Below are positions 1,944-37,315 of a stretch of DNA of 37,315 nucleotides, piece after piece. This DNA is from a virus (lineage: Duplodnaviria; Caudoviricetes). Within the stretch, counting starts at the first letter, position 1. Each line of letters opens with the position of its first letter. The position numbers and the translations under genes were made by a program. Location of the stretch: positions 1 through 37,315 of the IMG/VR virus record IMGVR_UViG_3300034945_000003. The stretch is one strand, 5' to 3'. The notes beneath the pieces were generated by a model, which searched no databases, was not told the DNA's origin, and saw only the letters and a list, made by a program, of their open reading frames with translations.

Positions 1944-2518
1944 AAAAGCTCTCGATAGTAATCATGGCTCATCCTAGCCGAGCTAAATTTATACCATACC
2001 TAAAAGAAATGTTAGGAGATGACATACCTGTAGTTTTTGATGAGAAGAATAATATTTGGGATACGTGCAGGAGGGCTTGGTTTGCGCAAGACTTTAGCTG
2101 TGAATATGGGGTAGTGATTCAAGATGACTGTATCATCACTCGCAATTTCAGAAAGAAAGCAGAGAAGCTTTTAACTGAAGATTTTATTTACTCTTTTTAT
2201 GCAGGAGAGATGTTAAGAGAAAAGATAAGGATAGCTCTACACTACAAGAGTGATAGAGTAATAAGCTCTATGATCTTTAATGAAGTGGCTCTCTGTATGA
2301 AGATGTCTAGAGTAAAAGACATGGTGAAATTCTGTGACGAAAGAGAAGCACAGACAGATCATGAAATAGTGAAGTATGCTCGTTCTCAAAATCTTAAAGT
2401 CTGCTATACACTTCCTAGCTTGGTAGATCATAGAGACACAGAAAGTATTTGGAGAAAGATGCAAGGGGGTAAAGTGTTTAGTAGTAAGCCACGTAAAGCT
2501 GTAAAATTTTTATCATGA
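1940..2518 (+). CDS. putative glycosyltransferase (GT-A fold)
   Basis: SIVIMAHPSR N-terminal strand, VVIQDDC acidic motif, PSLVDH motif. Confidence 0.65.
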   Translation: MKKLSIVIMAHPSRAKFIPYLKEMLGDDIPVVFDEKNNIWDTCRRAWFAQDFSCEYGVVIQDDCIITRNFRKKAEKLLTEDFIYSFYAGEMLREKIRIALHYKSDRVISSMIFNEVALCMKMSRVKDMVKFCDEREAQTDHEIVKYARSQNLKVCYTLPSLVDHRDTESIWRKMQGGKVFSSKPRKAVKFLS

Positions 2519-3255
2519 CAACAATTAAAAAAGGTAAAGTATTACCATACCAGATAAAAAATAATACTCTCACAACAGCTTTTATTATTCGTATGCACTT
2601 TAAGAAAGAAGATCCACGCTGGTCTTGGAGACTAGCATACTTTCAGAGTATTGTACTTCCTAAGATTCTCTCTCAAAGAGATCAAGACTTTGATATTTGT
2701 ATCCGGGCAAATAAGCATCACGAAAAAGAGTTACTAGCACTATCTCCAAAGATTAAAGTATTTGATGTAGATCCTAAAAAGAAGAATTGGGTGAAGCCGG
2801 GATATGAAGCTAAGATTAAGAAGTACTTTGTAGACTTTGTAAACTTTGAGGATATTATAGGACTTGATAGATATGATATTCAGATAGGAATAGACTCTGA
2901 TGACATGCCTATACGAGATGACTTTGTTACTAGAATAAAAAAAGAGGTGGAGAAAGATAGAGAGAGATCATTACATATCTCTTTTCAGCCTCAGATATTC
3001 CAGCCATCCACTTTAAGAGTGTATGAGTGTCCTTTTGAGTATGGTGTCTCTACTCTTAAAGGATCTCCTGTCTTTGCGATCTATCAGCCACTAAAAGGTA
3101 AAGGATATATGTACGCTTATGAGGACTCTCATTTGCTACTTCCTAGATACATGAATAAGGCTATTCGAATTGAGGATGACTACTGTGTATACTCAGTACA
3201 TGAATGTAACTCTTCTACTAGTCTTAATAGAAATTCTAAGCAAATAATGATATGA
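2515..3255 (+). CDS. putative glycosyltransferase (GT-A, rhamnosyltransferase-like)
   Basis: WRLAYFQSIVLPKILSQRDQDF and IDSDD motifs, C-terminal VHECNSS. Confidence 0.6.
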   Translation: MTTIKKGKVLPYQIKNNTLTTAFIIRMHFKKEDPRWSWRLAYFQSIVLPKILSQRDQDFDICIRANKHHEKELLALSPKIKVFDVDPKKKNWVKPGYEAKIKKYFVDFVNFEDIIGLDRYDIQIGIDSDDMPIRDDFVTRIKKEVEKDRERSLHISFQPQIFQPSTLRVYECPFEYGVSTLKGSPVFAIYQPLKGKGYMYAYEDSHLLLPRYMNKAIRIEDDYCVYSVHECNSSTSLNRNSKQIMI

Positions 3256-3989
3256 GAAAAATGAAATTCTATCGTTATCCTCATCCGTCAAATGTAGGGG
3301 ATACACTCACTCCATTCATTCTGAATCACTTTGTAAAAGATGTGGATTTCTCTCAAGTAAGAGAAGCAGAAAGTGGTAAACTTATAGCAGTAGGAAGCAT
3401 CATGAGGGTAATAAAGCCGGGAGACACAATATGGGGGTCAGGTGTCATGCGTGAGACAGATCAATTCCCACAAGCTAAAGACTGTACCTTTCTAGCAGTA
3501 AGAGGAAAACTATCAAGGGATATTTTAATAAGAGACGGTGGGAAAGTTCCGGCAGTCTATGGAGATCCTGCAATACTTCTACCCCTCATGTATAATCCAA
3601 AAATTGAAAGGACTCACAAAGTAGGTATCATCCCTCACTTTGTAGACACTCATCTTATTACAAAGCAATTTGGAAATAAGTTAGCAGGACATTCAGACTG
3701 GAAGATTATAGATGTTTTTCTACCCTATGAAGAGTTTATTAATGAAGTACTAAGCTGTGAGAAAGTAATCTCTAGCTCTCTACATGGATTAATTATTGCT
3801 GAAGCTTACGGCCTAGAAGCTGAGTGGGTAGTATTGAGTGAGAAAGTCATAGGTAATGGCTTCAAATTCAGAGACTATCTTACAGGCACAAATAGAGATC
3901 CACAGGGTCCAGGACTATTCCCTAAACTCGACATGAAGCTACTTACTAAATTGCAAAACAATTTATTAAAAGCCCTAGAGAAAATATAA
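3252..3989 (+). CDS. polysaccharide pyruvyl transferase family protein (ExoV-like)
   Basis: NVGD, AVGSI, IWGSG, AVRGKLS, GDPAILLP, GIIPHF, SSSLHGLIIAEAYG, FKFRDY motifs. Confidence 0.9.
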   Translation: MRKMKFYRYPHPSNVGDTLTPFILNHFVKDVDFSQVREAESGKLIAVGSIMRVIKPGDTIWGSGVMRETDQFPQAKDCTFLAVRGKLSRDILIRDGGKVPAVYGDPAILLPLMYNPKIERTHKVGIIPHFVDTHLITKQFGNKLAGHSDWKIIDVFLPYEEFINEVLSCEKVISSSLHGLIIAEAYGLEAEWVVLSEKVIGNGFKFRDYLTGTNRDPQGPGLFPKLDMKLLTKLQNNLLKALEKI

Positions 3990-13087: not shown

Positions 13088-13420
13088 ATGTCATATCTCT
13101 CACTACTCATCCAACTATGTACCATTCAAGCTAAGTCTCTTACTACTACCGGGTATGAGCAAATTGAATCATGGGAAGATGTAGCTGAGGATGTGCCTTG
13201 TAGAAAGGATAAAGACAACTCTCCAAGTATTTCAGATGGAGACATGAGAAAGAATACTGATAACGATCTATTTTATTTCATGCCCACAGTAGTTATTGAG
13301 AGAGGTAACAGAATCATTATTGATGGAGAAACGTATGATGTGCTTAAAGTAAATAAGTCTATGGACTCTACTGAGGTGCATCATCTCGAAGTAACAGCAA
13401 GGATGACAGACAACAAATAA
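13088..13420 (+). CDS. head-closure (stopper) protein
   Basis: WEDVAEDVPCR..RIIIDGETYDVL..HHLEV pattern; gene position. Confidence 0.8.
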   Translation: MSYLSLLIQLCTIQAKSLTTTGYEQIESWEDVAEDVPCRKDKDNSPSISDGDMRKNTDNDLFYFMPTVVIERGNRIIIDGETYDVLKVNKSMDSTEVHHLEVTARMTDNK

Positions 13421-24336: not shown

Positions 24337-24500
24337 CGTTTCATGTGAAAAGTAATAACCATTATACACTTTACTAGGACGTATATGACATCGTTACTAG
24401 GACAAATCTGTCCAACTTTTCCTTTTACTCTATATATATAATAATAATAAATTAATAAGAGATAATGTGAGGAATTGATTTTTTTAATTCTTAAAGATTT
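24337..24500. other. putative replication origin region
   Basis: TTACTAGGAC x2 (24371, 24394), inverted repeat GGACAaatcTGTCC (24400-24413), adjacent very AT-rich tract; upstream of the initiator gene. Confidence 0.45.
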
Positions 24501-24516
24501 TACTGATCTATTTAGA

Positions 24517-24563
24517 GTTACGCACAGGCAAATATTATATATGACTCTCGGATAGGGTATAAT
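24517..24563 (+). promoter_or_regulatory. GTTACGCACA-box promoter, copy 1
   Basis: GTTACGCACA at 24517; TATAAT at 24558. Confidence 0.7.
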
Positions 24564-24593
24564 CTTACAAGGGCAGAATTACAGCATCTAAAC

Positions 24594-24947
24594 ATGACAC
24601 AACAGCAAACAAGAAAATCAACCTTAATAACCACTTTCACAGGAGATATTTATATAATCTATGACAAGACTCCTGATGAAATAATGCAAGCGATAGAGCA
24701 TGTAGATATGGTAACAATGCCGAATGGATCTCGAATCCATAAAAAGTCTTTCTCATCTCTTCAGAGTTACGAAGACTATACTTTTCAAACAGAGCAGAAA
24801 GCTCGACATAAGAAAGGGCAGTATTTGAGAAATGGTGAGTGGAATGATAATCAAGGTCCGTTAGGAATAAAAGCAGAGCTAGAGAGAATCACAGGGACTC
24901 TTCCTAGTCTTGAATCTTCAAAGACTAAACAATTAACAACTTCTTAA
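24594..24947 (+). CDS. hypothetical protein
   Basis: First ORF after the promoter; carries the ACAGCA...ATGACA leader. Confidence 0.75.
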   Translation: MTQQQTRKSTLITTFTGDIYIIYDKTPDEIMQAIEHVDMVTMPNGSRIHKKSFSSLQSYEDYTFQTEQKARHKKGQYLRNGEWNDNQGPLGIKAELERITGTLPSLESSKTKQLTTS

Positions 24948-24948
24948 T

Positions 24949-25908
24949 ATGATTAAAAAATGTAAACTCTGTGAAGTCGAGGAATCAGAAGAAATACTTT
25001 TTCATAAGCATCACATCAAACAAAGGAAAGAAGGTGGAGATGATTCAAAAGAAAATTTAATAGATATTTGCAATGACTGTCATTATGCGATTCATCATCC
25101 TGAGAGAATTGATGGAGAACTGAAAGGATTAGAAAGTGATTACAAAGAGATGATAAGAGTGAATATATTTGCAGATGGTTATGGGGTAGTACCAAACAGA
25201 ATTCTTAGAGATAATAAAATCTCTCACTTTTCAAAAGTACTCTACTCAGAGCTTTCATCTCTCTGTGCTAGTAGAGGATATTGCTGGGCAACTAATGAAT
25301 ACTTTGCACGAGTATTTAAGGTAAGTGTAAGAACAGTAACACGAGCACTCGCAGAATTAGATCCTTATATTGTTATCAGAAATAAGATGAGTCCTAAGCG
25401 ACAGATATGGGTACATACTTTAAGTGGAGTAGAGCCTCGCCCTATAAAAGTTCAAGATAAAAAAAGAGTAGGAGAAAAGGGTTTGAACTCTCCAAAGAAA
25501 AAATCTGAAAAGAAAGTAGCTAAGAAATATCAGTTCACAGCACAAGATACAATGCTTGCTGAATATCTACTCTCAAGGATCTTGTACAACTTCCCTCACT
25601 TCCATAATAAGAAAGTAAACATTGATGAGTGGTCTGATGATATGAGAAAGCTGAGAGAGATCGACAAAGCCACAGCTCAACAGATCCACTTTATGATTAC
25701 ATGGGTACATGGTGGAACTATCGAAGAGAAGAAAGATAGTGATACAGGAAAGGTAACTCCTATGCGAGAGATGAAGCCTAATGAATTTTGGAGTAAGAAT
25801 ATCTTGAGTGCTAGTAAGTTAAGAAAGCAATGGTTTGATAATCTAGTACCACAGCTTCAACAGGATCTTAAGAAAGCAATTCAGAAGTCATCCACAGTAC
25901 AGCTCTAG
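24949..25908 (+). CDS. replication initiator (HTH_36-type) with N-terminal HNH domain
   Basis: CKLC..HHIK..GGDDSKENLIDICNDCHYAIH; VVPNRILRD..KVLYSEL..GYCWATNEYFA..SVRTVTRALAEL; C-terminal FWSKNILSASKLRKQW. Confidence 0.8.
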   Translation: MIKKCKLCEVEESEEILFHKHHIKQRKEGGDDSKENLIDICNDCHYAIHHPERIDGELKGLESDYKEMIRVNIFADGYGVVPNRILRDNKISHFSKVLYSELSSLCASRGYCWATNEYFARVFKVSVRTVTRALAELDPYIVIRNKMSPKRQIWVHTLSGVEPRPIKVQDKKRVGEKGLNSPKKKSEKKVAKKYQFTAQDTMLAEYLLSRILYNFPHFHNKKVNIDEWSDDMRKLREIDKATAQQIHFMITWVHGGTIEEKKDSDTGKVTPMREMKPNEFWSKNILSASKLRKQWFDNLVPQLQQDLKKAIQKSSTVQL

Positions 25909-25914
25909 GATCTC

Positions 25915-25943
25915 TTGGAGATTTAAGGCTCCATTGCTATAAT
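25915..25943 (+). promoter_or_regulatory. sigma70-type promoter of the sRNA
   Basis: TTGGAG-17 nt-TATAAT with extended TG. Confidence 0.75.
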
Positions 25944-25949
25944 TAATCC

Positions 25950-26052
25950 CGGTAGTATGTGATTTGTCATCCTTACTATCTGCTGTTATTCTCGGCTAGT
26001 AATAGCCAAAAAATAACTCTGAAGAACATCCCGAAAGGGGTGTTTTTCTTTT
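25950..26052 (+). ncRNA. putative trans-acting antisense sRNA (~100 nt)
   Basis: No ORF; own promoter; three hairpins (two with GNRA loops); seeds complementary to six start-codon regions. Confidence 0.75.
26021..26052 (+). terminator. intrinsic terminator of the sRNA
   Basis: GAAGAACATCCC-GAAA-GGGGTGTTTTTC then TTTT. Confidence 0.85.
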
Positions 26053-26058
26053 GTCTAA

Positions 26059-26106
26059 GTTACGCACAGTTATACACTTTACTTTCTCTAAAGTAAAATG
26101 TATAAT
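26059..26106 (+). promoter_or_regulatory. GTTACGCACA-box promoter, copy 2
   Basis: GTTACGCACA-GTTATACAC-TTTACT-17 nt-TATAAT. Confidence 0.8.
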
Positions 26107-26142
26107 AGAGAAGTTAGTAAGAGTAACAGCAAAATATTATTT

Positions 26143-26304
26143 ATGACAAACAGGTATCAAACATGCAAGAAGTGTCTACCACACTGGGGAGAATTAGGAG
26201 CTTGTAAAAGCCACAGTGGAGTATGGGACTTAGATCATGTTAACGTCGTAAGATGGATACAAATAGGATTATTCATTTTATGGAAAAAAGTATGGCCAAG
26301 ATAA
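26143..26304 (+). CDS. 53-aa hypothetical Cys/His protein
   Basis: ATG 26143 preferred because ATG 26098 lies inside the promoter. Confidence 0.55.
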   Translation: MTNRYQTCKKCLPHWGELGACKSHSGVWDLDHVNVVRWIQIGLFILWKKVWPR

Positions 26305-26528
26305 AAGAAGAAAAGTTTTATACTCCAAAAGAGATCACAGAGCTTGGTATCATGACAGCTTCATCTCCTGATACTAAACGTCAGATGCTTTTGAGGTTTA
26401 TTCGTGAGGGTAGAATTCAAGCAGTTAATTTAGGTGGAGATAAGAAGCCTCGTTATGTTGTTCAAGGTAAGCATCTAATGGAGTATATGAATACTCAGAT
26501 GAAGCCGGGAGAATATACGAAGAAGTAA
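26292..26528 (+). CDS. excisionase/HTH_17-like DNA-binding protein
   Basis: FYTPKEI..LRFIREGRIQAVNLG..PRYVV. Confidence 0.7.
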   Translation: MAKIKEEKFYTPKEITELGIMTASSPDTKRQMLLRFIREGRIQAVNLGGDKKPRYVVQGKHLMEYMNTQMKPGEYTKK

Positions 26529-26561
26529 TTTACAAAGTGAGTTAAAAATAACAGCAAACAA

Positions 26562-27212
26562 ATGACAAACATTTTAGAAGCTCAGAAAGAGCTAAAGCCA
26601 CTAGAGACTGAGATCGTATCTTTCAAAGAGAAAGTTGAAGCTCTTAGTATTACAAGTGATGAAGAATACAACGAAGCAATGAAGCTTGCAGGAATCATCA
26701 AGAGCAAAGAGGATGAGACTGAGAAGATGCGAAAGTTCTTCACAGCTCCACTCAACAAGCAAGTAGATGATATTAATGCTATGTTCATGCCTAAGGTAAA
26801 AGAGGCTAAAGAAATTGTCTCTATCATCAAGAGTAAGATGGCTTCATACAATGAAAAGAAAGAAGCTGATGCTAGGGCAGAACAGAAGCGCTTAGATGAC
26901 ATCCGGGCAAAGGCTGATCTCAAGCGACAAGAGCAAGGGAAAGAAGCTATCGCTACTCCTGTTCGAGAAGTTGCTCCAGTTGCTAAGACTGTAGTAAGTG
27001 ATGGTATCCAGTCTACAGTTAAGAAAGTGTGGACTCATGAGATCCTAAGCATCAATGAGCTTCCTGATGATGTAAAGAAAGCTATCTTTGCAGAAGCTTT
27101 TAATAAGGGAATCATTAAGACAGTTGTTCAGAAATTTGTGAACGCAGGTATTCGTGAAATGACAGGTGTGAAGATTTATCAAGAGAGTCAAATAGCTCTC
27201 AAGAGGGGGTAG
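26562..27212 (+). CDS. coiled-coil hypothetical protein of the recombination module
   Basis: Long helical region, KKVWTHEI..GVKIYQE C-terminus; precedes RecT. Confidence 0.7.
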   Translation: MTNILEAQKELKPLETEIVSFKEKVEALSITSDEEYNEAMKLAGIIKSKEDETEKMRKFFTAPLNKQVDDINAMFMPKVKEAKEIVSIIKSKMASYNEKKEADARAEQKRLDDIRAKADLKRQEQGKEAIATPVREVAPVAKTVVSDGIQSTVKKVWTHEILSINELPDDVKKAIFAEAFNKGIIKTVVQKFVNAGIREMTGVKIYQESQIALKRG

Positions 27213-27258
27213 TTACGCACAGGTATACATTTTACTTTTCAGTAAAAAAAGATATACT
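27212..27258 (+). promoter_or_regulatory. GTTACGCACA-box promoter, copy 3
   Basis: GTTACGCACA-GGTATACAT-TTTACT-16 nt-TATACT. Confidence 0.75.
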
Positions 27259-27290
27259 TAAGATATTACTAAATAACAGCAATTTGGTTT

Positions 27291-28136
27291 ATGACAAATA
27301 ATAAACAAACGTTAAAAGAGCAGATTATAGGTTTGCTCAAGAAAGAAAATAAAGAGCATGTAGAAGCTTTTGCTTCATACTGTTTGAGGCTTGCTACTGA
27401 GAAAGTTCGAGGAAAAGAAGAATTAAAAAATCCTTGGATGAGTACCAAGACTCCTGATGTCTTAGCTAAGTTGTTTCAGAGAGTTAAAGCTGAGGGATTA
27501 GTTTTTGATGGAAAGCATGTAACACTTCTTAATCGTGGTATCAGTTACGACTACCAAGCATATAAAAATAAAATGCTTCTAGTCTATCCTGAAAGTAAGA
27601 TAGATGTGGATGTGGTTAAAGAGGGGGATACTGTAAATTTTGATAAGGTGGATGGAGATATTACATACCGCCATATTATTAAAGATGCTTTTCAGAATCC
27701 TACTTTTGAGAATATCAAAGGTGCTTACTGTGTTATTCGTAACTCTCGTGGTGCTTTCTTAACAACTCTTTCAAAAGAGGAAATTCAGAAGCATAGAGCT
27801 ATCGCTCAAACAGATCAGATGTGGAAAGCTTGGTTTAAGGAAATGGTACTCAAGACTGTTCTTAAGAAAGGTTACAAGTATCACTTTGATGATCTAGCTG
27901 TAACAATGAATGAAGATGACAATCAGCATGTTGATCTAGAGAGAGTCATAGCCGATGACGAAGATCAAGAACGTTTTGAAGAAGAGAAGAAAAGAGTGCT
28001 TGATGTTATTAAGACTTATTCTGATCTAAAAAAGTTGAGAGAGTACTTTAAGACTCTTCCGGCTGAGTTCTCTAAAGATGAAGATGTAATCGAAGCTTTT
28101 AAGGCTCACGCAGAAGTATGCAAGAATACGAAATAA
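27291..28136 (+). CDS. recT: RecT-family single-strand annealing protein
   Basis: VVKEGD, IKGAYCVI, LSKEEIQKHR, WKAWFKEMVLKTVLK. Confidence 0.8.
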   Translation: MTNNKQTLKEQIIGLLKKENKEHVEAFASYCLRLATEKVRGKEELKNPWMSTKTPDVLAKLFQRVKAEGLVFDGKHVTLLNRGISYDYQAYKNKMLLVYPESKIDVDVVKEGDTVNFDKVDGDITYRHIIKDAFQNPTFENIKGAYCVIRNSRGAFLTTLSKEEIQKHRAIAQTDQMWKAWFKEMVLKTVLKKGYKYHFDDLAVTMNEDDNQHVDLERVIADDEDQERFEEEKKRVLDVIKTYSDLKKLREYFKTLPAEFSKDEDVIEAFKAHAEVCKNTK

Positions 28137-28741
28137 TCGAAGGAGAGCAAAAGACTGATGAGTGGTTGAAGCTTAGAACAGAGGTAGACATCACAGGCTC
28201 TATTGCTAAGAAAGTTAAAGTAGCTACAAATGATTTTCTGTATCAGTTGCTCGCTTACAAGAGATCAGATGAAGAGCCTAAGGAAGCTTTTGGCGAGGAT
28301 ATAGAAAGAGGTAATGAGCTAGAGCCTATTGCAAGAGAAGAGTATGAGAAGCAAACAAAAGAGAAAGTCAGACAAGTTGCTTTCATAAAAAATGGTCGCT
28401 ATGGTCTATCTCCTGATGGTTTAGTAATGAAGAAAGATAAGATTAAGAAGCTGATAGAGATTAAAGCTCCAAGGCCAAAGAATCACATTCGTTACATTCT
28501 TGAAAACAAAATACCAAAAGAGCACATAGATCAGATCATCCATATCTTTCTTGTGTGTACTGATGTGGATGAAGTGGACTTTGTTTCTTACTGTCCTCAG
28601 TTCAAGATTAAGAAGCTTCACATTATCAATATCAAGAGACAAACATTAATCGTAGACATCTCTACAACTCGTATCCAATACGAAAACTTTACTAAAAAAC
28701 TTGACGAAGCAGATTCAAAAATCGTCTCACTAATTATCTAA
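28118..28741 (+). CDS. YqaJ/lambda-type exonuclease
   Basis: EQKTDEWLKLR, RGNELEPIAR, SPDGL, IEIKAP. Confidence 0.9.
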   Translation: MQEYEIIEGEQKTDEWLKLRTEVDITGSIAKKVKVATNDFLYQLLAYKRSDEEPKEAFGEDIERGNELEPIAREEYEKQTKEKVRQVAFIKNGRYGLSPDGLVMKKDKIKKLIEIKAPRPKNHIRYILENKIPKEHIDQIIHIFLVCTDVDEVDFVSYCPQFKIKKLHIINIKRQTLIVDISTTRIQYENFTKKLDEADSKIVSLII

Positions 28742-28745
28742 TTCT

Positions 28746-29186
28746 ATGTACGTAAACAAAGTAACAATTCTCGGTAACTTAACAAGAGATCCTGAAGTGA
28801 AATCACTTCCTAATGGAAATAAAGTAGCTTCATTTTCTGTAGCCACTAATGAGGTCTATAAAGATGCTCAAGGACAGAAGAAAGAGAAAGTAGAATTCCA
28901 CAATGTCATCTTCTTTGGAAAGACTGCTGAGAATATCGGTATGTACATGAAGAAAGGATCTCAAGTCTATATTGAGGGAAAGTTACAGACTCGCTCATGG
29001 GATGATAAAACAACTGGAGAAAAGAAGTATCGCACAGAGATACTAGGCTCTACTATTCAATTTGGTAGTAAGCCTCAAGGCTCTGCTTCTGCTCCAACAG
29101 AAGCAAAGCCGGATGTTGTTACAGGTGGTGCTGATCTAGACACAATAGATTTTGGAGATGTAAACGTAGATGATATTCCATTCTAG
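28746..29186 (+). CDS. ssb: single-stranded DNA-binding protein
   Basis: NKVTILGNLTRDPE, VYIEGKLQTRSW, C-terminal DDIPF. Confidence 0.97.
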   Translation: MYVNKVTILGNLTRDPEVKSLPNGNKVASFSVATNEVYKDAQGQKKEKVEFHNVIFFGKTAENIGMYMKKGSQVYIEGKLQTRSWDDKTTGEKKYRTEILGSTIQFGSKPQGSASAPTEAKPDVVTGGADLDTIDFGDVNVDDIPF

Positions 29187-29188
29187 TC

Positions 29189-29629
29189 ATGAAGATAAAT
29201 AAACTTATTTATGTAGTGCATGACATCTTAGCCGAAGATGAGGAAGCAAGGAATAGTGATGCTAGATTAATATGTTTAGTATGGCTGAATCTTCACGCAG
29301 GACACATTCACTCAGTAGAGGTAAAAGGAGAGCCACGTCCTAAGCAATGTGTAACTCTGAAAGATATTGTAAGTGTTCTAGAGAGTCCTGAGACTATTCG
29401 AAGAACAAGACAAAAGATTCAGAATGATTTAGGGTTGTACCCTCCTACTCTTCTCAAAGTAATCAAAGGCAGACGATTCAAAGAAGAAGAGATCAGGGAA
29501 AGTGTCAGAAATAACTTTACCAAAGAACAGACTAAAGCAATTCTTGAAATCTACATGCTTGCAAAAAATAAGAGCAAGGTCGATGTAGGAAAGATTAAAA
29601 GAGAAGTGATATTAAAATACGGCCTATGA
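29189..29629 (+). CDS. hypothetical protein
   Basis: ARNSDARL..SPETIRRTRQKIQ pattern; packed ORF. Confidence 0.7.
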   Translation: MKINKLIYVVHDILAEDEEARNSDARLICLVWLNLHAGHIHSVEVKGEPRPKQCVTLKDIVSVLESPETIRRTRQKIQNDLGLYPPTLLKVIKGRRFKEEEIRESVRNNFTKEQTKAILEIYMLAKNKSKVDVGKIKREVILKYGL

Positions 29630-30219
29630 TATTAAAAGGACTTACTAAAAGCTTATTCTATCTAGATCGTGATACTGATGTGAATCAGTTAGCTAATGAA
29701 ATTCTTAGAGTAAAGAAAGCAGAGCTAGTAGTTTTTCTTGAGAGACAGCATAACAGGCTTCAAGAGAAAGATGCAGGAGAATACTTTACAGTCGAGGACA
29801 TTACAAAGCTGAAAGATGGAGAGCTTGAGAAGATGCAGAGATTTTTTAGGGGAGCAGTAGTACCTTACTATGCTAGACAGCAATATAATATCTGGTCAGA
29901 GTTTATTGATGATGAACATATTATCAAAGCAACTGAAGAGATAAAGAAGAGAGTGGGCTTTCTGAAATACGATCATACAGGTCATATCACTCAAGAGGTA
30001 AATTCAATGGCTACTTTTGAAAGGGTAAAGGATCTAAATGAATTTCTAAATATGATCCAAGTAGTGTGCTTTGATGATGAGGGTCATATCTTCCCAGACT
30101 CTGAATACTTTAAGAAATTAGAGAAAGAGAAAGGGAGACAGGCTACTCAAAGACAGTGTTACCTTGAGCTTCACGAAAAGGTGAAGAACAAACATTTTAA
30201 TCGAGAAATAATAACTTAA
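29626..30219 (+). CDS. hypothetical protein, possibly NinB/Orf-like
   Basis: QRFFRGAVVP and LNEFLNMI..IFPD loosely resemble NinB. Confidence 0.5.
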   Translation: MILKGLTKSLFYLDRDTDVNQLANEILRVKKAELVVFLERQHNRLQEKDAGEYFTVEDITKLKDGELEKMQRFFRGAVVPYYARQQYNIWSEFIDDEHIIKATEEIKKRVGFLKYDHTGHITQEVNSMATFERVKDLNEFLNMIQVVCFDDEGHIFPDSEYFKKLEKEKGRQATQRQCYLELHEKVKNKHFNREIIT

Positions 30220-30222
30220 TTT

Positions 30223-30795
30223 ATGACTACATCCAAAAAAACAAATGTGAAGAAAGCAGCTAAAAAAACACTCTCAAAAGAGTCAGTAAAGACTCTTGAG
30301 AAGATCGGTGTAGAAGTTCCTGAGCTTCTAAAGGAAGAGCTTATCCCGTCTGTTACAGCAAAGTTCAAGGTAAGTGAGATAGCTATGAAAGATGGTGGGC
30401 GATGGAAGATGAAGCTTGTAGTTTTTAATCGAATGAGAAGAAACGAGAATGATTACTCTGTTAGATTTGAATTTGATGATGAGCCATTCCTTAAGACTAT
30501 CAAGGCTCTTGAGAAAGATATTGCTGAAGTAGAAGCTAACCCTACCCTTCTCCAAAGTATTGATAATGAAAAAATCAATCGCCTTAATCGAAGAATTGAT
30601 GAGACTCAGAGAGAGATGCGCAAGAATAAGAAAGAGTGTCCTGATATTGAATTTATAGGACAAGTAGATCAAGTAAACTATGTAGGAGATACATCTTTCA
30701 TCTTCAGAATCCCTGATTCAGCTATTACTCTATTGAATCAGCAAAGATTCAGATTCCCTGAGTATCGTGTCGTATTAGAAGAGATCAATAATTAA
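30223..30795 (+). CDS. hypothetical protein with central coiled coil
   Basis: Packed ORF. Confidence 0.7.
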   Translation: MTTSKKTNVKKAAKKTLSKESVKTLEKIGVEVPELLKEELIPSVTAKFKVSEIAMKDGGRWKMKLVVFNRMRRNENDYSVRFEFDDEPFLKTIKALEKDIAEVEANPTLLQSIDNEKINRLNRRIDETQREMRKNKKECPDIEFIGQVDQVNYVGDTSFIFRIPDSAITLLNQQRFRFPEYRVVLEEINN

Positions 30796-30800
30796 TCTAT

Positions 30801-31055
30801 ATGAAGAAATTTCTTAAGCTATTTTTTAGGCCATCTATCGCAGGAAAGTTTGTAAGTCGTGGGAGAAAGGTAAAAGTGAGTATCAGTAATCTAGATAAGC
30901 AAGATTCTTTTACCTTGATGTTTATGATTCTAAAAGAAGTCGCTAAGTATCTAGGAATGGATCATAGAGAGCTGCTTAACAAGCTTAAGGATCTAGACAC
31001 TCAGATCAAGAAGAATGAAAAGACTGAGGTTAAGAAAGCAAAGTACGGGAAGTAG
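30801..31055 (+). CDS. hypothetical protein
   Basis: Packed ORF. Confidence 0.65.
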   Translation: MKKFLKLFFRPSIAGKFVSRGRKVKVSISNLDKQDSFTLMFMILKEVAKYLGMDHRELLNKLKDLDTQIKKNEKTEVKKAKYGK

Positions 31056-31056
31056 T

Positions 31057-32247
31057 ATGTATACACTAAGAAAATACCAGAAAGAAGCTGTAGCTAGTGC
31101 TCTAGAATTCTTTATGTCTAGTGCCTCATATCGCCCTATAGAGGTGCTTCCTACAGGAGCAGGTAAGTCTCTCATCATTGCTGATCTCGTAAGACACTTA
31201 CAAGATGATGTTTTGATTCTTCAGCCATCAAAGGAATTGCTAGAGCAGAACTTCAAGAAGTATCAGATGGCTTGTGAGATGTTCCCTGAGCTTACTAAGG
31301 CTACTATCTACTCTGCTTCAGTTGGGGTAAAAGAAAAGAGTCGTGTTACTTTTGCAATGATAGGAAGTATCTATAAGACTCCTGAAATGTTTTATGACAC
31401 ACAGTATGTTCTCATAGATGAATGTCACAAAGTACCTCCTAAGACTGACTCTATGTATGTTGAATTTCTTTCAAGTATTACTGCTAGAGTTCTAGGGCTT
31501 ACAGCTACTCCATTCAGGCTCAAGAAATATAATGATCCTTTCAGTGGACGTCCTTATTCTAAAATTAATCTTCTTACTAGAGAGATCCCTAAATTCTTTA
31601 ATAAGTTTATTCATGTTACGCAGATCAGAGACTTGTATGAAGAGGGCTTTCTCTGTCCTATAAATTATGTTCCTATGCACTTTGATGGCTCAGCGCTCCG
31701 GGTGAATACAACAGGAGCAGAATTTACTGACAGATCATTGAAAGAAGCTATTGAGAGAAACGACATCTTAAAAAAGATTCCTGCTATTCTCAAGCAAGCA
31801 TACGAGAAAGGACAGAGATCATCTCTAGTCTTTGTGAGCACTGTTGAAGAAGCTCGTGAGTTAGCTGCTATTACTCCATTCTCAGGTTACATCCATGCAC
31901 TCACTCCAAGCAAGGAAAGAGCAGAGACTATCAAAGCTTTCAAGGCTGGGAATATAAAGACTATCTTTAATGTGTCTGTGCTTACTACTGGGTTTGATTA
32001 TCCTGGACTAGATACTATCATTATGGCTCGTCCTACAATGTCTCTTACTCTTTACATGCAGATCATAGGAAGAGGAATGAGAACTGAAGAGGGAAAGACT
32101 AAGTGTACTTTCATTGATATGTGTGGTAACTTTGCACGCTTTGGAAAGCTCGAAGAGATGGAAATAATGGAAGATCCAAAACTTGGATGGGTGTTGAGAA
32201 ATGGAGAGAAGATATTAAGTGGTCGTAGACTCGATGAGCTTGTATAA
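31057..32247 (+). CDS. superfamily 2 DExH helicase (RadD/YejH-like)
   Basis: LRKYQ, PTGAGKS, DECH, GLTATP, LTTGFDYP, QIIGRGMR; ATG 31057 preferred. Confidence 0.95.
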   Translation: MYTLRKYQKEAVASALEFFMSSASYRPIEVLPTGAGKSLIIADLVRHLQDDVLILQPSKELLEQNFKKYQMACEMFPELTKATIYSASVGVKEKSRVTFAMIGSIYKTPEMFYDTQYVLIDECHKVPPKTDSMYVEFLSSITARVLGLTATPFRLKKYNDPFSGRPYSKINLLTREIPKFFNKFIHVTQIRDLYEEGFLCPINYVPMHFDGSALRVNTTGAEFTDRSLKEAIERNDILKKIPAILKQAYEKGQRSSLVFVSTVEEARELAAITPFSGYIHALTPSKERAETIKAFKAGNIKTIFNVSVLTTGFDYPGLDTIIMARPTMSLTLYMQIIGRGMRTEEGKTKCTFIDMCGNFARFGKLEEMEIMEDPKLGWVLRNGEKILSGRRLDELV

Positions 32248-32254
32248 TATAACT

Positions 32255-32494
32255 ATGGAATTTTTTATAGAAAAAGATACGCTAAAAGCTTTTGGAGAGA
32301 AGAATCCTCTTGAGAGTATTATAGCCAAGATCCTTGAGACTGGCTCTGAAGATTTTATAGCTTGCTTTCTATCCGGGTGTACTATGGACATCACGACTGA
32401 TAACAGTAAGATGACGATTAAGACTCGCTATCCTGTGTCAATTTTGAAGCATCCTAATGGGACAATACTAAGTATCATTGAGAAGAGGATATGA
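32255..32494 (+). CDS. hypothetical protein
   Basis: ATG 6 nt after TATAAT (32243). Confidence 0.6.
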   Translation: MEFFIEKDTLKAFGEKNPLESIIAKILETGSEDFIACFLSGCTMDITTDNSKMTIKTRYPVSILKHPNGTILSIIEKRI

Positions 32495-33033
32495 AAAGAA
32501 CAGGCTTTAAGAGACTCAGCTATGAGGAAGTAATTGCAAAGCAGAGAGAGCAAAGAGAGACAAGATTACTTGTTAGAAAAAGTAGATCCATAGAGCTTCA
32601 GCCTAAGGTCAGAGTACCTAAGACAAAAGAGCAGAGAGTAAAGTCTCTCAAAACTAAGCTTTGGGATATGTTCTCTCAGTACATCCGAAAGAGTTACGCT
32701 AACCAAGATGGAATGGTGATGACTTGTGACGGACAATTTAAGCACTGGAAAGAAACTCACTGTGGACACTTGTTTAATAACTCAGAGCGCTCTCAGTCTC
32801 TCGGTGGAAATATGCTTTGGTATGATGAAAGGAATTTTGCCCCTCAGTCAGCTAATGGAAATTGTTTTAATGCTAATGATTCAGCAAAGGTCTATATGAT
32901 GTGGGCTGTGAGTAAGTACGGCCTTGAGACTGTACAGCAAATGAAGCTGCTTAAAAACGAGCCTAGAAAGTTTACTGAAGAGGAATTAACAGCTAAGTAC
33001 TTATACTATAAGAATTTGTTTGCTACACTATAG
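32491..33033 (+). CDS. ninG: NinG/Rap-family endonuclease
   Basis: LWDMFSQYIR, HCGHL, WYDERNFAPQ. Confidence 0.75.
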   Translation: MKRTGFKRLSYEEVIAKQREQRETRLLVRKSRSIELQPKVRVPKTKEQRVKSLKTKLWDMFSQYIRKSYANQDGMVMTCDGQFKHWKETHCGHLFNNSERSQSLGGNMLWYDERNFAPQSANGNCFNANDSAKVYMMWAVSKYGLETVQQMKLLKNEPRKFTEEELTAKYLYYKNLFATL

Positions 33034-33037
33034 GGAT

Positions 33038-33577
33038 ATGACAACAACAGACACAAAGACTATTACAATTTCTAATCCGGCAGGACTTCCAACTATCCCC
33101 TGGAAGAAGCTAAAGGAGTGGGAGCCTAACACTCTTAAAGAAAAAAAGAATCGTGATGTCGGTGATCTAAAAGCCTCCATTCTCGCTATGGGCTTCACTA
33201 TCCCATTCTTTGTGTGGGAAAAGGGGAAATACATAGCTGATGGCGCAGGACGTCATCTAGCCCTAGAATTGCTCGAATACGAGGGATACGAGATCCCTGA
33301 TCTCCCTTATGTTCCTCTAGAAGCCAAAAACAGGGCAGAGGCTAAGCGCCTAGTACTTGCTATCAGCTCTCAATATGGTCTAGTTACTCCGGGAAGTATC
33401 GGAGAGTTTACTTTTGATCTTAAAGAAATAGACATCTCTTTCATCAATGTAGAGGGGTATAACCTAGAAGAGATAGACTGGACTCCACCAAAATCAAAAG
33501 AGATCGATATGGAAAGAATGAAAGGAGAGACTAAGATGGTCCACAAATGTCCTAAGTGTCAGTTTGAATTTAACTAA
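33038..33577 (+). CDS. ParB/Srx-like N-terminal domain protein with C-terminal CxxC
   Basis: LKASILAMGFTIP..IADGAGRHLAL; HKCPKCQFEF; the type usually found next to phage methyltransferases. Confidence 0.7.
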   Translation: MTTTDTKTITISNPAGLPTIPWKKLKEWEPNTLKEKKNRDVGDLKASILAMGFTIPFFVWEKGKYIADGAGRHLALELLEYEGYEIPDLPYVPLEAKNRAEAKRLVLAISSQYGLVTPGSIGEFTFDLKEIDISFINVEGYNLEEIDWTPPKSKEIDMERMKGETKMVHKCPKCQFEFN

Positions 33578-33579
33578 AT

Positions 33580-34617
33580 ATGAAAGCAATTTGGAGTAAG
33601 GCAGACTACCCGAAAGAAAAGAATGGATACAAAGTGTATTCATGCTTTGCTTGTGGTGGTGGCTCTACTATGGGTTATAAGCTTGCAGGCTTCGAAGTGA
33701 TAGGTGCTAATGATATAGATCCTGAGATGGCTAAAATATATCAGACGAATCATAACCCTAAGCACTATCACTTGATGGATATTCGATCTCTCGTAAAAGA
33801 AGAGAATCTACCAAAAGAAATGTTTGATCTAGATATTCTAGATGGATCTCCACCTTGTTCATCTTTCTCTATGTCCGGGAGTCGTGAAGAGAAGTGGGGA
33901 GAGAAAAAGAAATTCAGAGAGGGTCAAGCAGAGCAGACACTTGATGATCTCTTTTTTGATTTCATAGACTTAGCCAAGAGACTTCAGCCTAAGGTTGTGA
34001 TAGCCGAAAATGTGAAAGGCCTTATCTCAGGAAATGCTAAGAGATATGTAGTAGCTATAAATGAGGCTTTTGATGAAGCAGGATATGATGCTCAGCTTTT
34101 TCTTTTGAATGGGTCTAGTATGGGAGTACCACAAAGAAGAGAAAGAGTGTTTTTTATTGCACGTAGAAAGGATCTTAATCTTCCTAAGATGACTCTAGAC
34201 TTTACAGATAAGCCTGTATATTTTGGAGACATCAGAACTGATAAGGGGATTCAAGGGGCAATGAATCCTGAGACTAAGATGTACGAGATGTGGACTCATA
34301 GAAAAAAGAGTGATGCTAATTTCTCAAGCATAGCGAAGAGACTCTATAACAAAGCAAGTTACTTCAGTGAAACAATTTTACATGATGATAAGATTCCTCC
34401 TACTCTAGTAAGTGGCTCAGCTTACTATCTCTATGACAAAGCTTTTCAAGTAAGTAGTGCTGATCTAATTTCTATTCAGTCATTCCCTCAAGACTATGAT
34501 TTTATTAAGCCAAGCTACAACTTCATCAAGTATGTACTAGGGATGTCAGTACCACCTCTTATGACTATGGGAGTAGCTAAACAGGTAGAGCTACAATTAC
34601 TTTCTAAGTTGAAATAG
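33580..34617 (+). CDS. C5 cytosine DNA methyltransferase
   Basis: FACGGG, GSPPCSSFS, ENVKG, QRRERVF, GMSVPP. Confidence 0.95.
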   Translation: MKAIWSKADYPKEKNGYKVYSCFACGGGSTMGYKLAGFEVIGANDIDPEMAKIYQTNHNPKHYHLMDIRSLVKEENLPKEMFDLDILDGSPPCSSFSMSGSREEKWGEKKKFREGQAEQTLDDLFFDFIDLAKRLQPKVVIAENVKGLISGNAKRYVVAINEAFDEAGYDAQLFLLNGSSMGVPQRRERVFFIARRKDLNLPKMTLDFTDKPVYFGDIRTDKGIQGAMNPETKMYEMWTHRKKSDANFSSIAKRLYNKASYFSETILHDDKIPPTLVSGSAYYLYDKAFQVSSADLISIQSFPQDYDFIKPSYNFIKYVLGMSVPPLMTMGVAKQVELQLLSKLK

Positions 34618-34649
34618 TCTAAAAAAGACTTGCAATATATAGTCCAAAA

Positions 34650-34697
34650 GTTACGCACATATTTGCACTTTACTTTTATTTAGTATCCCGATAGTAT
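34650..34697 (+). promoter_or_regulatory. GTTACGCACA-box promoter, copy 4
   Basis: GTTACGCACA-TATTTGCAC-TTTACT-17 nt-TAGTAT. Confidence 0.75.
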
Positions 34698-34728
34698 ATA
34701 GATATTAGAAAAGTAACAGCAAAAACAA

Positions 34729-34989
34729 ATGACAACACAAACAATTAATTCAATAAGTTTCAAGAATGAGAAATGTGTAATCTTCCTTAACGAAGATAAG
34801 ACTTTCTCAGGAAGAGATATGACAGATCCTTGGAATGAGCCTCGTATGTACACAAAGAATACTCGTTCATTCAAGAGAGGTGTAGAAGCACTTAAGAAAG
34901 CTTTTGATGACAATACTACAATGTATCAAGTAGCAGGAATTCTTAATGACTGTGGACTTAATGCTCGTACATACTGCTCAGTAGATTAA
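34729..34989 (+). CDS. hypothetical protein
   Basis: First gene after the promoter, with the conserved leader. Confidence 0.75.
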   Translation: MTTQTINSISFKNEKCVIFLNEDKTFSGRDMTDPWNEPRMYTKNTRSFKRGVEALKKAFDDNTTMYQVAGILNDCGLNARTYCSVD

Positions 34990-34990
34990 T

Positions 34991-35149
34991 ATGAAAGTAT
35001 TTTTTAACATCATTCTAAAAGTAATCATCATCTATCTAGTAATAGATGTGGTGATGTTTCTTGTGTGGGCTTTGTCAGCTCAGTACCCGGTAGATGGTTT
35101 CTATGTTGGCGCTGTTACAAAGATGATTTTACAGTTTATCTTTTTCTAA
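34991..35149 (+). CDS. 52-aa hydrophobic membrane peptide (not in ORF track)
   Basis: MKVFFNIILKVIIIYLVIDVVMFLVWALSAQYPVDGFYVGAVTKMILQFIFF*; 1-nt gaps on both sides. Confidence 0.7.
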   Translation: MKVFFNIILKVIIIYLVIDVVMFLVWALSAQYPVDGFYVGAVTKMILQFIFF

Positions 35150-35150
35150 T

Positions 35151-35312
35151 ATGGATCTACCTATTGAAAGTGAAACAATTTGTACTCACTGTAAGATGTA
35201 CACAAAGCCATTCATTCATGAAGAAGAGGGTAGAGGTGCTTGTGAGTTTTGTGGAAAAGATATGTTGAGAAAGATAGATGGAAAGTGGGAGAGAATTATT
35301 TTACCAGATTAA
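35151..35312 (+). CDS. 53-aa zinc-ribbon protein (not in ORF track)
   Basis: MDLPIESETICTHCKMY..GACEFCGKDM..ILPD*. Confidence 0.7.
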   Translation: MDLPIESETICTHCKMYTKPFIHEEEGRGACEFCGKDMLRKIDGKWERIILPD

Positions 35313-35322
35313 TTTTATACTT

Positions 35323-35604
35323 ATGGGAATTTATATATCAAGCAAAGGGGAAGAGAAAGAGACTGAAGAGATGGCTTACCCATATCTAATTTCAGCTCTA
35401 AGAAAAGCAGAGAGAGAAGCTGATGAGGATACTAGGTCAATGAATAATCTTGCTGTACTTAATGCAGAACTTGCTACACGTTGTAAGGGTTGTGGATGTA
35501 AGTTTGAATCAGATCGAGCAGCTCTTAGCCGTTATGGTCATGGAGATATTTGTCCTGACTGTGGTACTCGTGAAGCTCTAGAGGGAGACTTTATTACTAA
35601 GTAA
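35323..35604 (+). CDS. hypothetical protein with C-terminal zinc finger
   Basis: CKGCG..AALSRY..ICPDCGTREAL; ATG 35323 preferred. Confidence 0.7.
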   Translation: MGIYISSKGEEKETEEMAYPYLISALRKAEREADEDTRSMNNLAVLNAELATRCKGCGCKFESDRAALSRYGHGDICPDCGTREALEGDFITK

Positions 35605-35605
35605 T

Positions 35606-35944
35606 ATGTACAACGGAAAATGTCAGAGCTGTGAAGAGTATGGAGAAGTAAATGACATCATGCTCTGTGATGACTGTGCTGAGGATCTTGAGAAGGAAGA
35701 TGGTCTATCAGAGGGAGAGGTATGGGCTGAGTATCGAGGTAACAACCAAAAGAAAAAGGCTCAGAATGAAATTGATAGTATCAAGCTTCTAGAGAGTAAG
35801 GGAATTGATTATACTATTCTCAATAAGGAGTGTAGACACTACCGAGTAATGGGCTTTGATTTTTGGCCATCTACCGGGAAATTCTATAACCAAAAGACAG
35901 GACAGAAAGGAAGAGGTGTATTTAATCTAATCAAGCTACTCTAG
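35606..35944 (+). CDS. hypothetical protein with N-terminal CxxC pairs
   Basis: CQSC..CDDC; FDFWPSTGKF..GRGVFNL. Confidence 0.7.
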   Translation: MYNGKCQSCEEYGEVNDIMLCDDCAEDLEKEDGLSEGEVWAEYRGNNQKKKAQNEIDSIKLLESKGIDYTILNKECRHYRVMGFDFWPSTGKFYNQKTGQKGRGVFNLIKLL

Positions 35945-35945
35945 T

Positions 35946-36158
35946 ATGGAAAAAGAAAAGAAAGAAGCTCAAAAGTTTATGGCTATTATGTTTAGAGATG
36001 ATGGAATGACTGAAGAGACTTTTGCTGACATGAATTCTCAAGACATAAAAGCTATTAGAAGTACTTTTATATTTAAGTGTTGGGTGATCTCTCAGAATGT
36101 TTTTGCACTTGTGGACTCTTTACGAGAGTATTTTAATGGTATAATTAAGAAGCTATAA
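35946..36158 (+). CDS. hypothetical protein
   Basis: Packed ORF. Confidence 0.65.
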   Translation: MEKEKKEAQKFMAIMFRDDGMTEETFADMNSQDIKAIRSTFIFKCWVISQNVFALVDSLREYFNGIIKKL

Positions 36159-36162
36159 AGAT

Positions 36163-36264
36163 ATGCGATGTTTAACCTGTAGAAAAGATAGAAAGTTAAA
36201 AAAAGGGTATTGCAAAGCATGTCGGAAAAGCGCCGGTCATGAAATCACACTACAAGAAATCTAG
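36163..36264 (+). CDS. 33-aa CxxC-CxxC peptide (not in ORF track)
   Basis: MRCLTCRKDRKLKKGYCKACRKSAGHEITLQEI*. Confidence 0.45.
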   Translation: MRCLTCRKDRKLKKGYCKACRKSAGHEITLQEI

Positions 36265-36775
36265 GACTTCAGTGTCCTATATAATTGCAGTAGTTGTATT
36301 CATTATTCTCTTATCATTACTGACTCCACAAGCAGTAGGATCTACACAAGTAGTCGTAGAGAATAATGAAACTGACAGTACACTACATCAGGTTCCTCTA
36401 TGAAGAGATCACGCTTTAGCTTTAACAAAAGCTATAGCGATTATTGAGACAGGTGGCTCTGCTAACTGTTCAATAACTGGTCTTTCAGGAGAAAGGGGTT
36501 GTCATCAATTCCTACCTAGTACTTGGGCGCTTTACTCTCAAGATATTTTTGGCTATGTAGCAGAGCAGACAGAAGAAAATGCTGAGTATGTTACTCGCAT
36601 GAAGATAGAGAAGTGGCTAGAGAAAGGGCTTACAGATCGTCAAATATTTTTAATATGGAATCAAGGAAATTACGGTCCTTGTAAAAGTGGAATCAATAAG
36701 TATGGTGTAGCCTATGACTCATGTGCTTATGCTGAAAAAGCTCTGAGGATACTCTCAGAAGTTACGCACAGGTGA
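36239..36775 (+). pseudogene. membrane-anchored lytic transglycosylase-like gene interrupted by an in-frame TGA at 36401 (pseudogene, readthrough or sequence error)
   Basis: TM YIIAVVVFIILLSLL, then TGA, then the same frame continues AIAIIETGG..GERGCHQFLPSTW..IWNQG (SLT motifs). Confidence 0.75.
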
Positions 36776-36817
36776 GAATGTTATGCACTTTACTTTTCCC
36801 TCAGAATAAAGTAAAAT
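36761..36817 (+). promoter_or_regulatory. GTTACGCACA-box promoter, copy 5
   Basis: GTTACGCACA..GTTATGCAC-TTTACT-17 nt-TAAAAT. Confidence 0.8.
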
Positions 36818-36845
36818 GTAAGTATACAAAAATAACAGCAAACAA

Positions 36846-37315
36846 ATGACAAAAGACTATTATCCAACTCCTAACAAAGTATTAGATCAGATGCTTCTAG
36901 GTGTTCAATTTGATGAGATAAATACTATTCTAGAGCCAAGCGCAGGTAAGGGGGATATTTGTGATTACATCCGAGAAAGGAGAAATCGCAGGTCAGATGA
37001 TTTAAGTATTGACGTAGTAGAGATTGATACTGATCTTCAGAAGATTCTACAGGGCAAGAAATACAATTTGGTCTATGATGATTTTCTTTCTTTTCAGACT
37101 TCTAAAAAGTATGATTTGATAGTAGCTAACTTTCCTTTCTCTGATGGAGATGAGCACCTACAGAAAGCTCTACAACTTCAGGAGCAGTATGGTGGCTCTC
37201 TCATCTGTTTAGTAAACGCTGAGACTATAAAAAATCCTTATTCAAATTTAAGAAAGACTTTAGTAACAAAGCTTGAAAAGTATGGGGCTGAAATAAAATA
37301 TCTTCAAGATATGTT
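36846..37315 (+). CDS. N6-adenine-type DNA methyltransferase domain protein (3'-truncated by window edge; not in ORF track)
   Basis: MTKDYYPTP..ILEPSAGKGDI..VEID..DDFL..YDLIVANFPF. Confidence 0.85.
   Translation, partial: MTKDYYPTPNKVLDQMLLGVQFDEINTILEPSAGKGDICDYIRERRNRRSDDLSIDVVEIDTDLQKILQGKKYNLVYDDFLSFQTSKKYDLIVANFPFSDGDEHLQKALQLQEQYGGSLICLVNAETIKNPYSNLRKTLVTKLEKYGAEIKYLQDM

Follow-up and report, generated by a model that had tools for sequence, protein, structure and literature searches.

Six early gene starts and a predicted small RNA carry complementary sequences

We analyzed a 37,315-bp tailed-phage contig from a soil metagenome (IMG/VR record IMGVR_UViG_3300034945_000003; this whole stretch of DNA is hereafter the window), in which six early genes start with a shared two-part motif and the complement of this motif lies within a predicted antisense RNA of about 100 nt. 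All recognized genes are on the + strand, as are the target sites, the predicted RNA and the promoters described here. Genes from terminase to lysin occupy 4.7–24.2 kb and are followed by those encoding the replication initiator, RecT, a YqaJ exonuclease, a single-stranded DNA-binding protein (SSB), a helicase, NinG and methyltransferases.

A preliminary description of the window had located the motif at positions 24577, 26122, 26547, 27272, 34712 and 36831, with spacers of 7, 11, 5, 9, 7 and 5 nt between its halves and an open reading frame (ORF) beginning with ATGACA at each site. All of this was confirmed. The first target (24577..24602) comprises the leader and start of g1, a 117-aa ORF of unknown function that heads an operon with the replication initiator, whose ATG (24949) follows the g1 stop codon by 1 nt. 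The second (26122..26151) belongs to a 53-aa ORF heading an operon with an excisionase-like helix-turn-helix (HTH) gene (26292-26528), and the third (26547..26570) to an internal gene, 26562, which has no promoter of its own and encodes a 216-aa coiled-coil phage protein with a weak Sipho_Gp157-like fold. The fourth (27272..27299) is found at recT, which overlaps the exonuclease gene and heads the series recT, YqaJ exonuclease, ssb, helicase, ninG and C5 methyltransferase. The remaining two precede an 86-aa ORF at the head of small accessory genes (34712..34737) and a DNA methyltransferase gene that extends beyond the window end (36831..36854).

The leader word ARTWACAGCA occurs 10 times in the window against 0.51 expected. 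A genome-wide scan for the two-part pattern, as the preliminary description had proposed, returned 8 occurrences compared with 0 in 300 dinucleotide shuffles. Besides the six gene-start sites, these were an inverted copy at 25963-25990, within the predicted RNA, and a site at 13390 that had been missed. Three motif copies are variants: two carry an A-to-G change, which is G-U compatible, and one an A-to-T change (24577) that gives a U-U mismatch.

The inverted copy is part of an ORF-free unit between the initiator gene and the second early promoter, predicted to encode a small RNA (sRNA) of about 100 nt (25949..26052). Its predicted promoter (25915..25943) consists of a TTGGAG -35 hexamer, 17 nt and an extended -10 element, TGCTATAAT. 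The RNA is predicted to fold into hairpin P1 (25951-25980), a linker, hairpin P2 (25985-26017) and an intrinsic terminator (26021-26052), with a fold z-score of -5.3 and none of 200 shuffles as stable. Seed 1, UUUGUCAU (25963..25970), lies in the loop and upper stem of P1 and is the complement of ATGACAAA, that is, of the start codon and codons 2-3. Seed 2, UGCUGUUAUU (25981..25990), is the complement of AATAACAGCA; its first 4 nt are unpaired and the remainder is in the A-U-rich base of P2. Both seeds stand in the antiparallel order required for pairing with the two-part target. A second DNA run of the same study, which is not independent, spans 25921-26153 and shows no difference; the list of sequencing runs included no RNA holder.

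Seeds and targets change together in eleven phages

Relatives were gathered by RecT alignment, promoter pattern and HTH alignment. Ten syntenic phages or fragments had the region intact (G001-G006, G011, L149, L204 and L312), while L203 (region missing), L190 (repeated leaders, no matching antisense unit seen) and L289-L291 (unrelated) were left out of the family set. A single-protein RecT scan had found nothing, and alignment was needed; alignment scans with the replication initiator and the helicase returned no further close family member, and no close relative of the window phage was found among annotated phages. Searching viral contigs for the window's seeds gave only chance-looking matches, since the relatives have other seeds.

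The promoter-hairpin-hairpin-terminator unit occupies the same position in all ten relatives. Nine of the 11 sRNA promoters fit TTGnnn-17/18-TAnnnT, unlike the TTTACT-type early promoters, and the 5' domain of the RNA without its terminator gave z-scores of -1.1 to -4.0 (-2.2 or lower in 10 of 11). Despite this shared fold tendency the 11 sequences are barely alignable: MAFFT failed to put them in register, and a covariance model retained only 3 pairs and was not used. The leader word is particular to each phage, whose RNA contains its complement; examples are AAGYAACAAGC in G002, ACATAAGCA in G005, GCAAACAAAGC in L204 and ATCAACAACAAATTT in L312. Both seeds are present in nine phages, and L149 and L312 have the leader seed only. 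A cognate site was found at the start of the 26562 orthologue in all nine phages having the gene (8 relatives and the window).

The preliminary description had suggested looking for covariation of seeds and targets in related phages. We therefore paired whole sRNA 5' domains with the -30..+9 regions of 48 starts in an 11x11 matrix, the targets being picked by position (whichever ORF comes first behind each early promoter, plus recT, the orthologue of 26562 and the gene heading the initiator operon). The own target set was the best by normalized energy in 10/11 rows and 11/11 columns, and by longest helix in 11/11 rows and 10/11 columns. The diagonal had a mean z of -1.69 versus +0.36, and none of 200,000 permutations was as good. 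The RNA of G002 also fits the leaders of G011 (-22.3 versus -23.5 kcal/mol), a cross-fit predicted from their similar seeds. Within the window, the six targets rank 1, 2, 5, 6, 8 and 16 of 65 starts. When whole genomes were scanned with the seeds, leaving the RNAs themselves aside, 59 matches were in sense and 10 in antisense orientation; this strand bias is partly built in, since sense targets had served to define the seeds. Picked targets account for 35 of the sense matches, and another 6 precede the first ATG of other genes; none of the 10 antisense matches lies at a gene start.

The start-codon seed and the second codon also correspond. P1 of seven phages contains GUCA(U/C), and their targets begin with ATGAC in 27/32 cases and with the G-U-compatible ATGGC in 3 more. 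In the two phages with a CCAU loop all 10 targets begin with ATGG and none with ATGAC, and in the two phages without an anti-AUG loop ATGAC is found at 0/6 targets. Background starts have ATGAC in 32/344 and ATGG in 72/344 cases. The codon-2 association has a Fisher p value of 2e-6, which overstates independence because the two CCAU phages may represent one event.

The seventh two-part match in sense orientation (13390..13408) falls within the final codons of the gene for the head-tail adaptor, 15 nt 5' of the neck gene start, and pairs strongly with the window's sRNA. We considered it as a conserved late-gene target and rejected it. The site has no cognate counterpart in six relatives, where the own sRNA ranks 2-9 of 11, and it spells Val-Thr-Ala in the coding frame; on these grounds it is probably a chance match.

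An antisense RNA as a candidate inhibitor of many translation starts

The complementarity, the promoter-hairpin-hairpin-terminator layout and the matched seed and target changes seen in the 11 phages are best explained, in our view, by a trans-acting antisense RNA of about 100 nt that would block ribosome loading on six early genes at once. We assign this reading a probability of roughly 0.8. That the motifs are sRNA target sites acting at the RNA level, as the preliminary description had proposed, is strongly supported by the seed/target covariation and by the conserved promoter-hairpin-terminator unit, while its arguments from G-U compatibility and polarity proved weak.

The RNA would be transcribed from its own canonical sigma-70 promoter. 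Pairing may begin at the P1 loop or the linker without Hfq and spread by opening weak A-U stems, and it is probably chaperone-free given that Hfq was found in 0/151 genomes of the likely host phylum (the host being inferred from the SSB); RNase III was found in 148/151. Two helices, one of about 10 bp at the leader and one of 5-8 bp at the start codon, would span roughly -20 to +8 and could thereby exclude the 30S subunit from the region needed in a host without Shine-Dalgarno (SD) pairing. Downstream genes would be silenced through translational coupling and perhaps mRNA decay. Here the preliminary description stood in part. It had placed five of the targets first in their transcripts, and a AGTTACGCACA box with a -10-like hexamer indeed lies upstream of 5/6 target genes. 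The silencing by polarity that it considered possible is uncertain, since Rho exceeded the family cut-off in only 28/151 sampled genomes of the likely host phylum. Together with the 1-nt gap between g1 and the initiator and the overlap of recT with the exonuclease gene, this makes coupling or decay likelier than Rho polarity.

Several observations weigh against the proposed RNA and its role. Structure prediction often leaves seed 2 half-paired, with mean unpaired probabilities of 0.01-0.93 for its halves. Seed 1 is mostly unpaired (0.75 or more) in seven of nine phages but only partly so in the RNAs of the window (0.44) and G001 (0.54); these folds took in four bases upstream of the guessed +1. 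Targets of G005 rank 11-29 of 78 by duplex energy, although they match the seed at 8-10 of 10 positions, and the recT start of G006, ranking 46 of 50, is probably not a target. Three automatic target picks were corrected by hand: two were dropped, one lying upstream of its promoter and one at a contig edge, and the third was moved to the ATG behind the promoter. The sRNA loci were first spotted partly by antisense match; G011 and L312, which turned up once the hypothesis was in place, both agree with it. The A-to-G variants had been taken as a G-U sign of selection at the RNA level, an argument that does not stand by itself: across the 48 targets G-U-compatible changes amount to 21/355 versus 6/125 for A-C-type changes (Fisher p=0.82). 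The shift to CCAU and ATGG stems from two phages, perhaps of one lineage (trees unresolved). Repressor absence is a result of family scans in which many small ORFs had no hit, the SSB is the sole basis for the proposed host, and a search with the HTH gene found no prophage in 401 Patescibacteria genomes.

Three other explanations were weighed. The first, which we regard as unlikely, is that the motif is a DNA operator or an element of the initial transcribed region read by a phage protein, the inverted copy being one more operator. Five copies lie at about +7 to +20 from the predicted transcription starts, a usual position of operators, yet gene 26562 has a site and no promoter. A small HTH protein is encoded nearby, but it is 55-84% conserved while the motif varies, and the conserved DNA element suited to a protein is a separate upstream box found at 31/32 promoters. 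Operators would likewise co-vary within a genome, and the absence of G-U asymmetry agrees with them. On the other hand, all gene-start copies are in sense orientation, and the sole intergenic inverted copy lies within a folded, ORF-free, terminator-ended RNA in 11/11 phages. The spacer varies and the second half of the motif tracks the start codon; a bulged RNA would tolerate 5 to 11 nt between half-sites where a rigid operator presumably would not, which favors RNA.

A shade less likely still, the RNA may be real and guide a protein to DNA or nascent RNA, either through an R-loop on the non-template strand or by antisense-induced termination. Both seeds of the RNA read one strand, in contrast to the two-strand guides of TIGR systems, and no RNA-guided protein family turned up in our scans. 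In favor of this reading, the RNA has complementarity to the non-template strand right behind five -10 elements; against it, one target is an internal gene, and seed 1 follows the start codon together with codon 2. Termination has a precedent in the CI RNA of P4 (PMC4825925). The least probable explanation treats the leaders as generic translation enhancers, rich in A and C, that spread when promoter cassettes were duplicated, with the inverted copy a remnant: the cassettes are alike within each phage and RecT could homogenize them, and A-rich leaders with Thr or Ala second codons suit SD-less initiation, but enhancers of this kind should not differ among relatives and should also stand at late genes, whereas each phage has a specific word matched by its own RNA and retains the matched 9-10 nt where flanks and spacers differ between copies.

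Possible roles of the antisense RNA

If the antisense RNA works as proposed, we lean slightly toward a role as an RNA repressor and immunity factor, which would keep genes for replication and recombination repressed during a carrier or plasmid-like state and would block incoming phages with the same seeds. This role is favored by the diversification of seeds, the direct targeting of the initiator operon and the lack of a detectable protein repressor. Integrase, repressor and antirepressor families had no match among 55 window ORFs (PHROGs) and none among 74 ORFs, mostly a non-structural choice from the 156 called, of three relatives rated 100% complete. Otherwise, the RNA would be a timer ending early expression in lytic growth, for which the lack of an integrase or ParA hit leaves room. 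A carrier-state RNA might explain how phages without a recognizable repressor persist and exclude their kin.

A bolder proposal, which we hold only tentatively, is that this phage family has swapped a CI-type repressor for one RNA serving as master switch of all early operons. Its seeds would then define immunity groups and have reshaped codon 2 of unrelated proteins, and the design would recur in phages of SD-less hosts. Immunity by RNA alone would in that case be widespread among phages, and a form of control that has so far gone undescribed. Known phage immunity RNAs act on a single transcript, whereas here a whole early regulon would be addressed via a phage-specific tag. The system would also show antisense control without Hfq or SD pairing, and would represent a regulatory circuit for phages of Patescibacteria, a phylum with barely known biology. 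The 11 natural seed/target sets provide ready cognate and non-cognate pairs for testing, and compact orthogonal RNA switches are a possible use.

Relation to known regulatory systems

Our literature search, which did not cover subscription journals, found no title or abstract on this phage family, nor any describing an RNA by which a phage addresses a tag common to many of its own early genes. The closest known system is the C4 RNA (immI) of P1 and P7. C4 acts in trans and pairs through two short seeds with the surroundings of a translation start, and small seed changes set specificity between related phages (PMC5320573, PMC12197685). The window's RNA likewise has two seeds and a two-part target at the translation start, similar to the a1b1 targets of C4, and its seeds and targets co-vary between related phages. 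The differences concern the RNA itself and what it would control. An Rfam search of the window gave no match at the gathering score; the C4 family (RF01695) was absent from 11 weak sub-threshold hits (E<=10) in 25850-26150, and the C4 covariance model had no match in three relatives at E<=1. C4 is a processed three-stem RNA cut from a precursor by RNase P, while the window's RNA is predicted to run from its own promoter to a terminator with hairpins in series. C4 targets the antirepressor (ant) mRNA, whereas this RNA would act directly on 3-7 dispersed replication, recombination, accessory and methyltransferase genes. One of its seeds reads the AUG and codon 2 and not the SD region, and no protein repressor was found in this family. 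Judged by its sequence, the system is C4-like in its predicted working and distinct in model match, fold and target.

The P4 CI RNA is also similar in that an RNA pairs at two sites and thereby silences the replication genes of its own element (PMC4825925). There, CI is processed out of the very leader that it regulates, in which it brings about premature termination at seqA/seqC; here the start sites are on five separate transcripts, 70 bp to 11 kb away. T4 RegA, in turn, is one factor occluding the AUG region of many early mRNAs, about 30 (PMC3014915). RegA is a protein with loose A/U-rich sites, in contrast to an RNA that would read a phage-specific word.

Among plasmid copy-number antisense RNAs, CopA of R1 blocks a short gene coupled to the Rep gene through Hfq-independent, loop-initiated pairing, and sequence changes in RNAs of this type define incompatibility groups. 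CopA-type RNAs are cis-encoded on the opposite strand, fully complementary and directed to a single target, while the window's RNA comes from a separate locus on the same strand and has only 8+10 nt of complementarity to many targets. TIGR-Tas systems consist of a repeat array of two-spacer guides and a Nop-domain protein, their spacers reading opposite strands. In contrast, the RNA described here is a single unit in which both seeds read one strand, and Nop-domain searches had no hit among 29 window proteins (Pfam) or 55 (PHROGs).

Similar layouts may exist elsewhere. A strict blind detector flagged 4/11 family loci, 1/98 distant RecT loci and 0/151 and 0/101 other loci; as it missed the window itself, these blanks show specificity and not absence. 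The sole distant hit, L193 (9557-9640), belongs to an otherwise unrelated phage with the same RNA layout: a hairpin with a GUCCAU loop, an UUUGUUUUGAU linker and a terminator. Ten sense copies of the matching word, ATCAAAACA, are present in L193, most of them near gene starts, and its promoter words are of the Bacteroidota type.

Phage context and likely host

The host is likely a member of the ultra-small Patescibacteria. Among the best 120 SSB homologues, the four organism-named rows were Pacebacteria, Parcubacteria, Paceibacterota and Minisyncoccia (60-61% identity), all names pointing to that phylum. Against this assignment, the only named RecT neighbor is a Clostridia bin (50%), and within annotated phages the capsid has its top match in a Flavobacterium phage (33.5%). 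The early promoter pattern was not enriched in Patescibacteria chromosomes and thus gives no evidence on the host. No prophage with the HTH gene was found in 5 metagenome-assembled genomes with distant RecT hits, and no tRNA genes were found. SD-like words precede 12/344 non-target gene starts in nine phages. Wolfebacteria, Campbellbacteria and Absconditabacteria are listed among SD-scarce organisms lacking the conserved anti-SD core (PMC10783764).

About 900 bp of the genome is probably missing from the window, as the same proteins occur on a 38,218-bp contig. The methyltransferase gene cut at the window end (36846-37315) and a DUF4942 segment at 1-356 are consistent with a circular genome minus about 900 bp. 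Just 5' of the terminase gene lie glycosyltransferase, rhamnosyltransferase-like and pyruvyl-transferase genes (1940-3989), with similar clusters in relatives. A secreted transglycosylase-like ORF (36239-36775) is interrupted by one in-frame TGA at 36401-36403, which may reflect mutation, error or read-through.

Early promoters and features around the sRNA locus

The five early promoters share the upstream AGTTACGCACA box. The first (24516..24563) has a TATAAT -10 and TTATAT, not TTTACT, at the -35 position. The other four combine the box with a TTTACT -35, followed by TATAAT (26058..26106), TATACT (27211..27258), TAGTAT (34649..34697) and TAAAAT (36760..36817). A TTATCCACA-like box lies no more than 40 nt upstream of 31/32 family early promoters, compared with 5.5% of random windows, and is conserved across phages while the RNA words vary. 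It may constitute a separate, DNA-level layer of control and is a candidate site for the HTH protein (26292) or for DnaA, whose box it resembles. Behind the -35 word CACTTTACT there is often a near-inverted AGTAAA(G/A)TG, located at the -10 or ahead of it (26075-26100 in the window, and in relatives), the pair forming an imperfect palindrome of variable spacing.

Some features around the sRNA locus differ within the family. G002 and G011 have an additional small promoter-ORF-terminator cassette, including an SD-like GGAGG, between the sRNA and the second early promoter (L144:8560-8700; L309:9330-9600). The subgroups differ in whether g1 or the initiator gene comes first (L146, L149, L204 and L312 versus the window); where intact, whichever of the two is first carries the target, and g1 is also targeted in L149 and L204. 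An N-terminal HNH domain of the replication initiator (24949-25908) occurs only in the window and G001 and is absent in the other seven aligned relatives. Finally, short direct repeats lie upstream of g1, two copies of TACTAGGAC in the window (24360-24420) and three of GGGGTGACAAA in G004 (L147:7310-7365), which suggests a replication origin.

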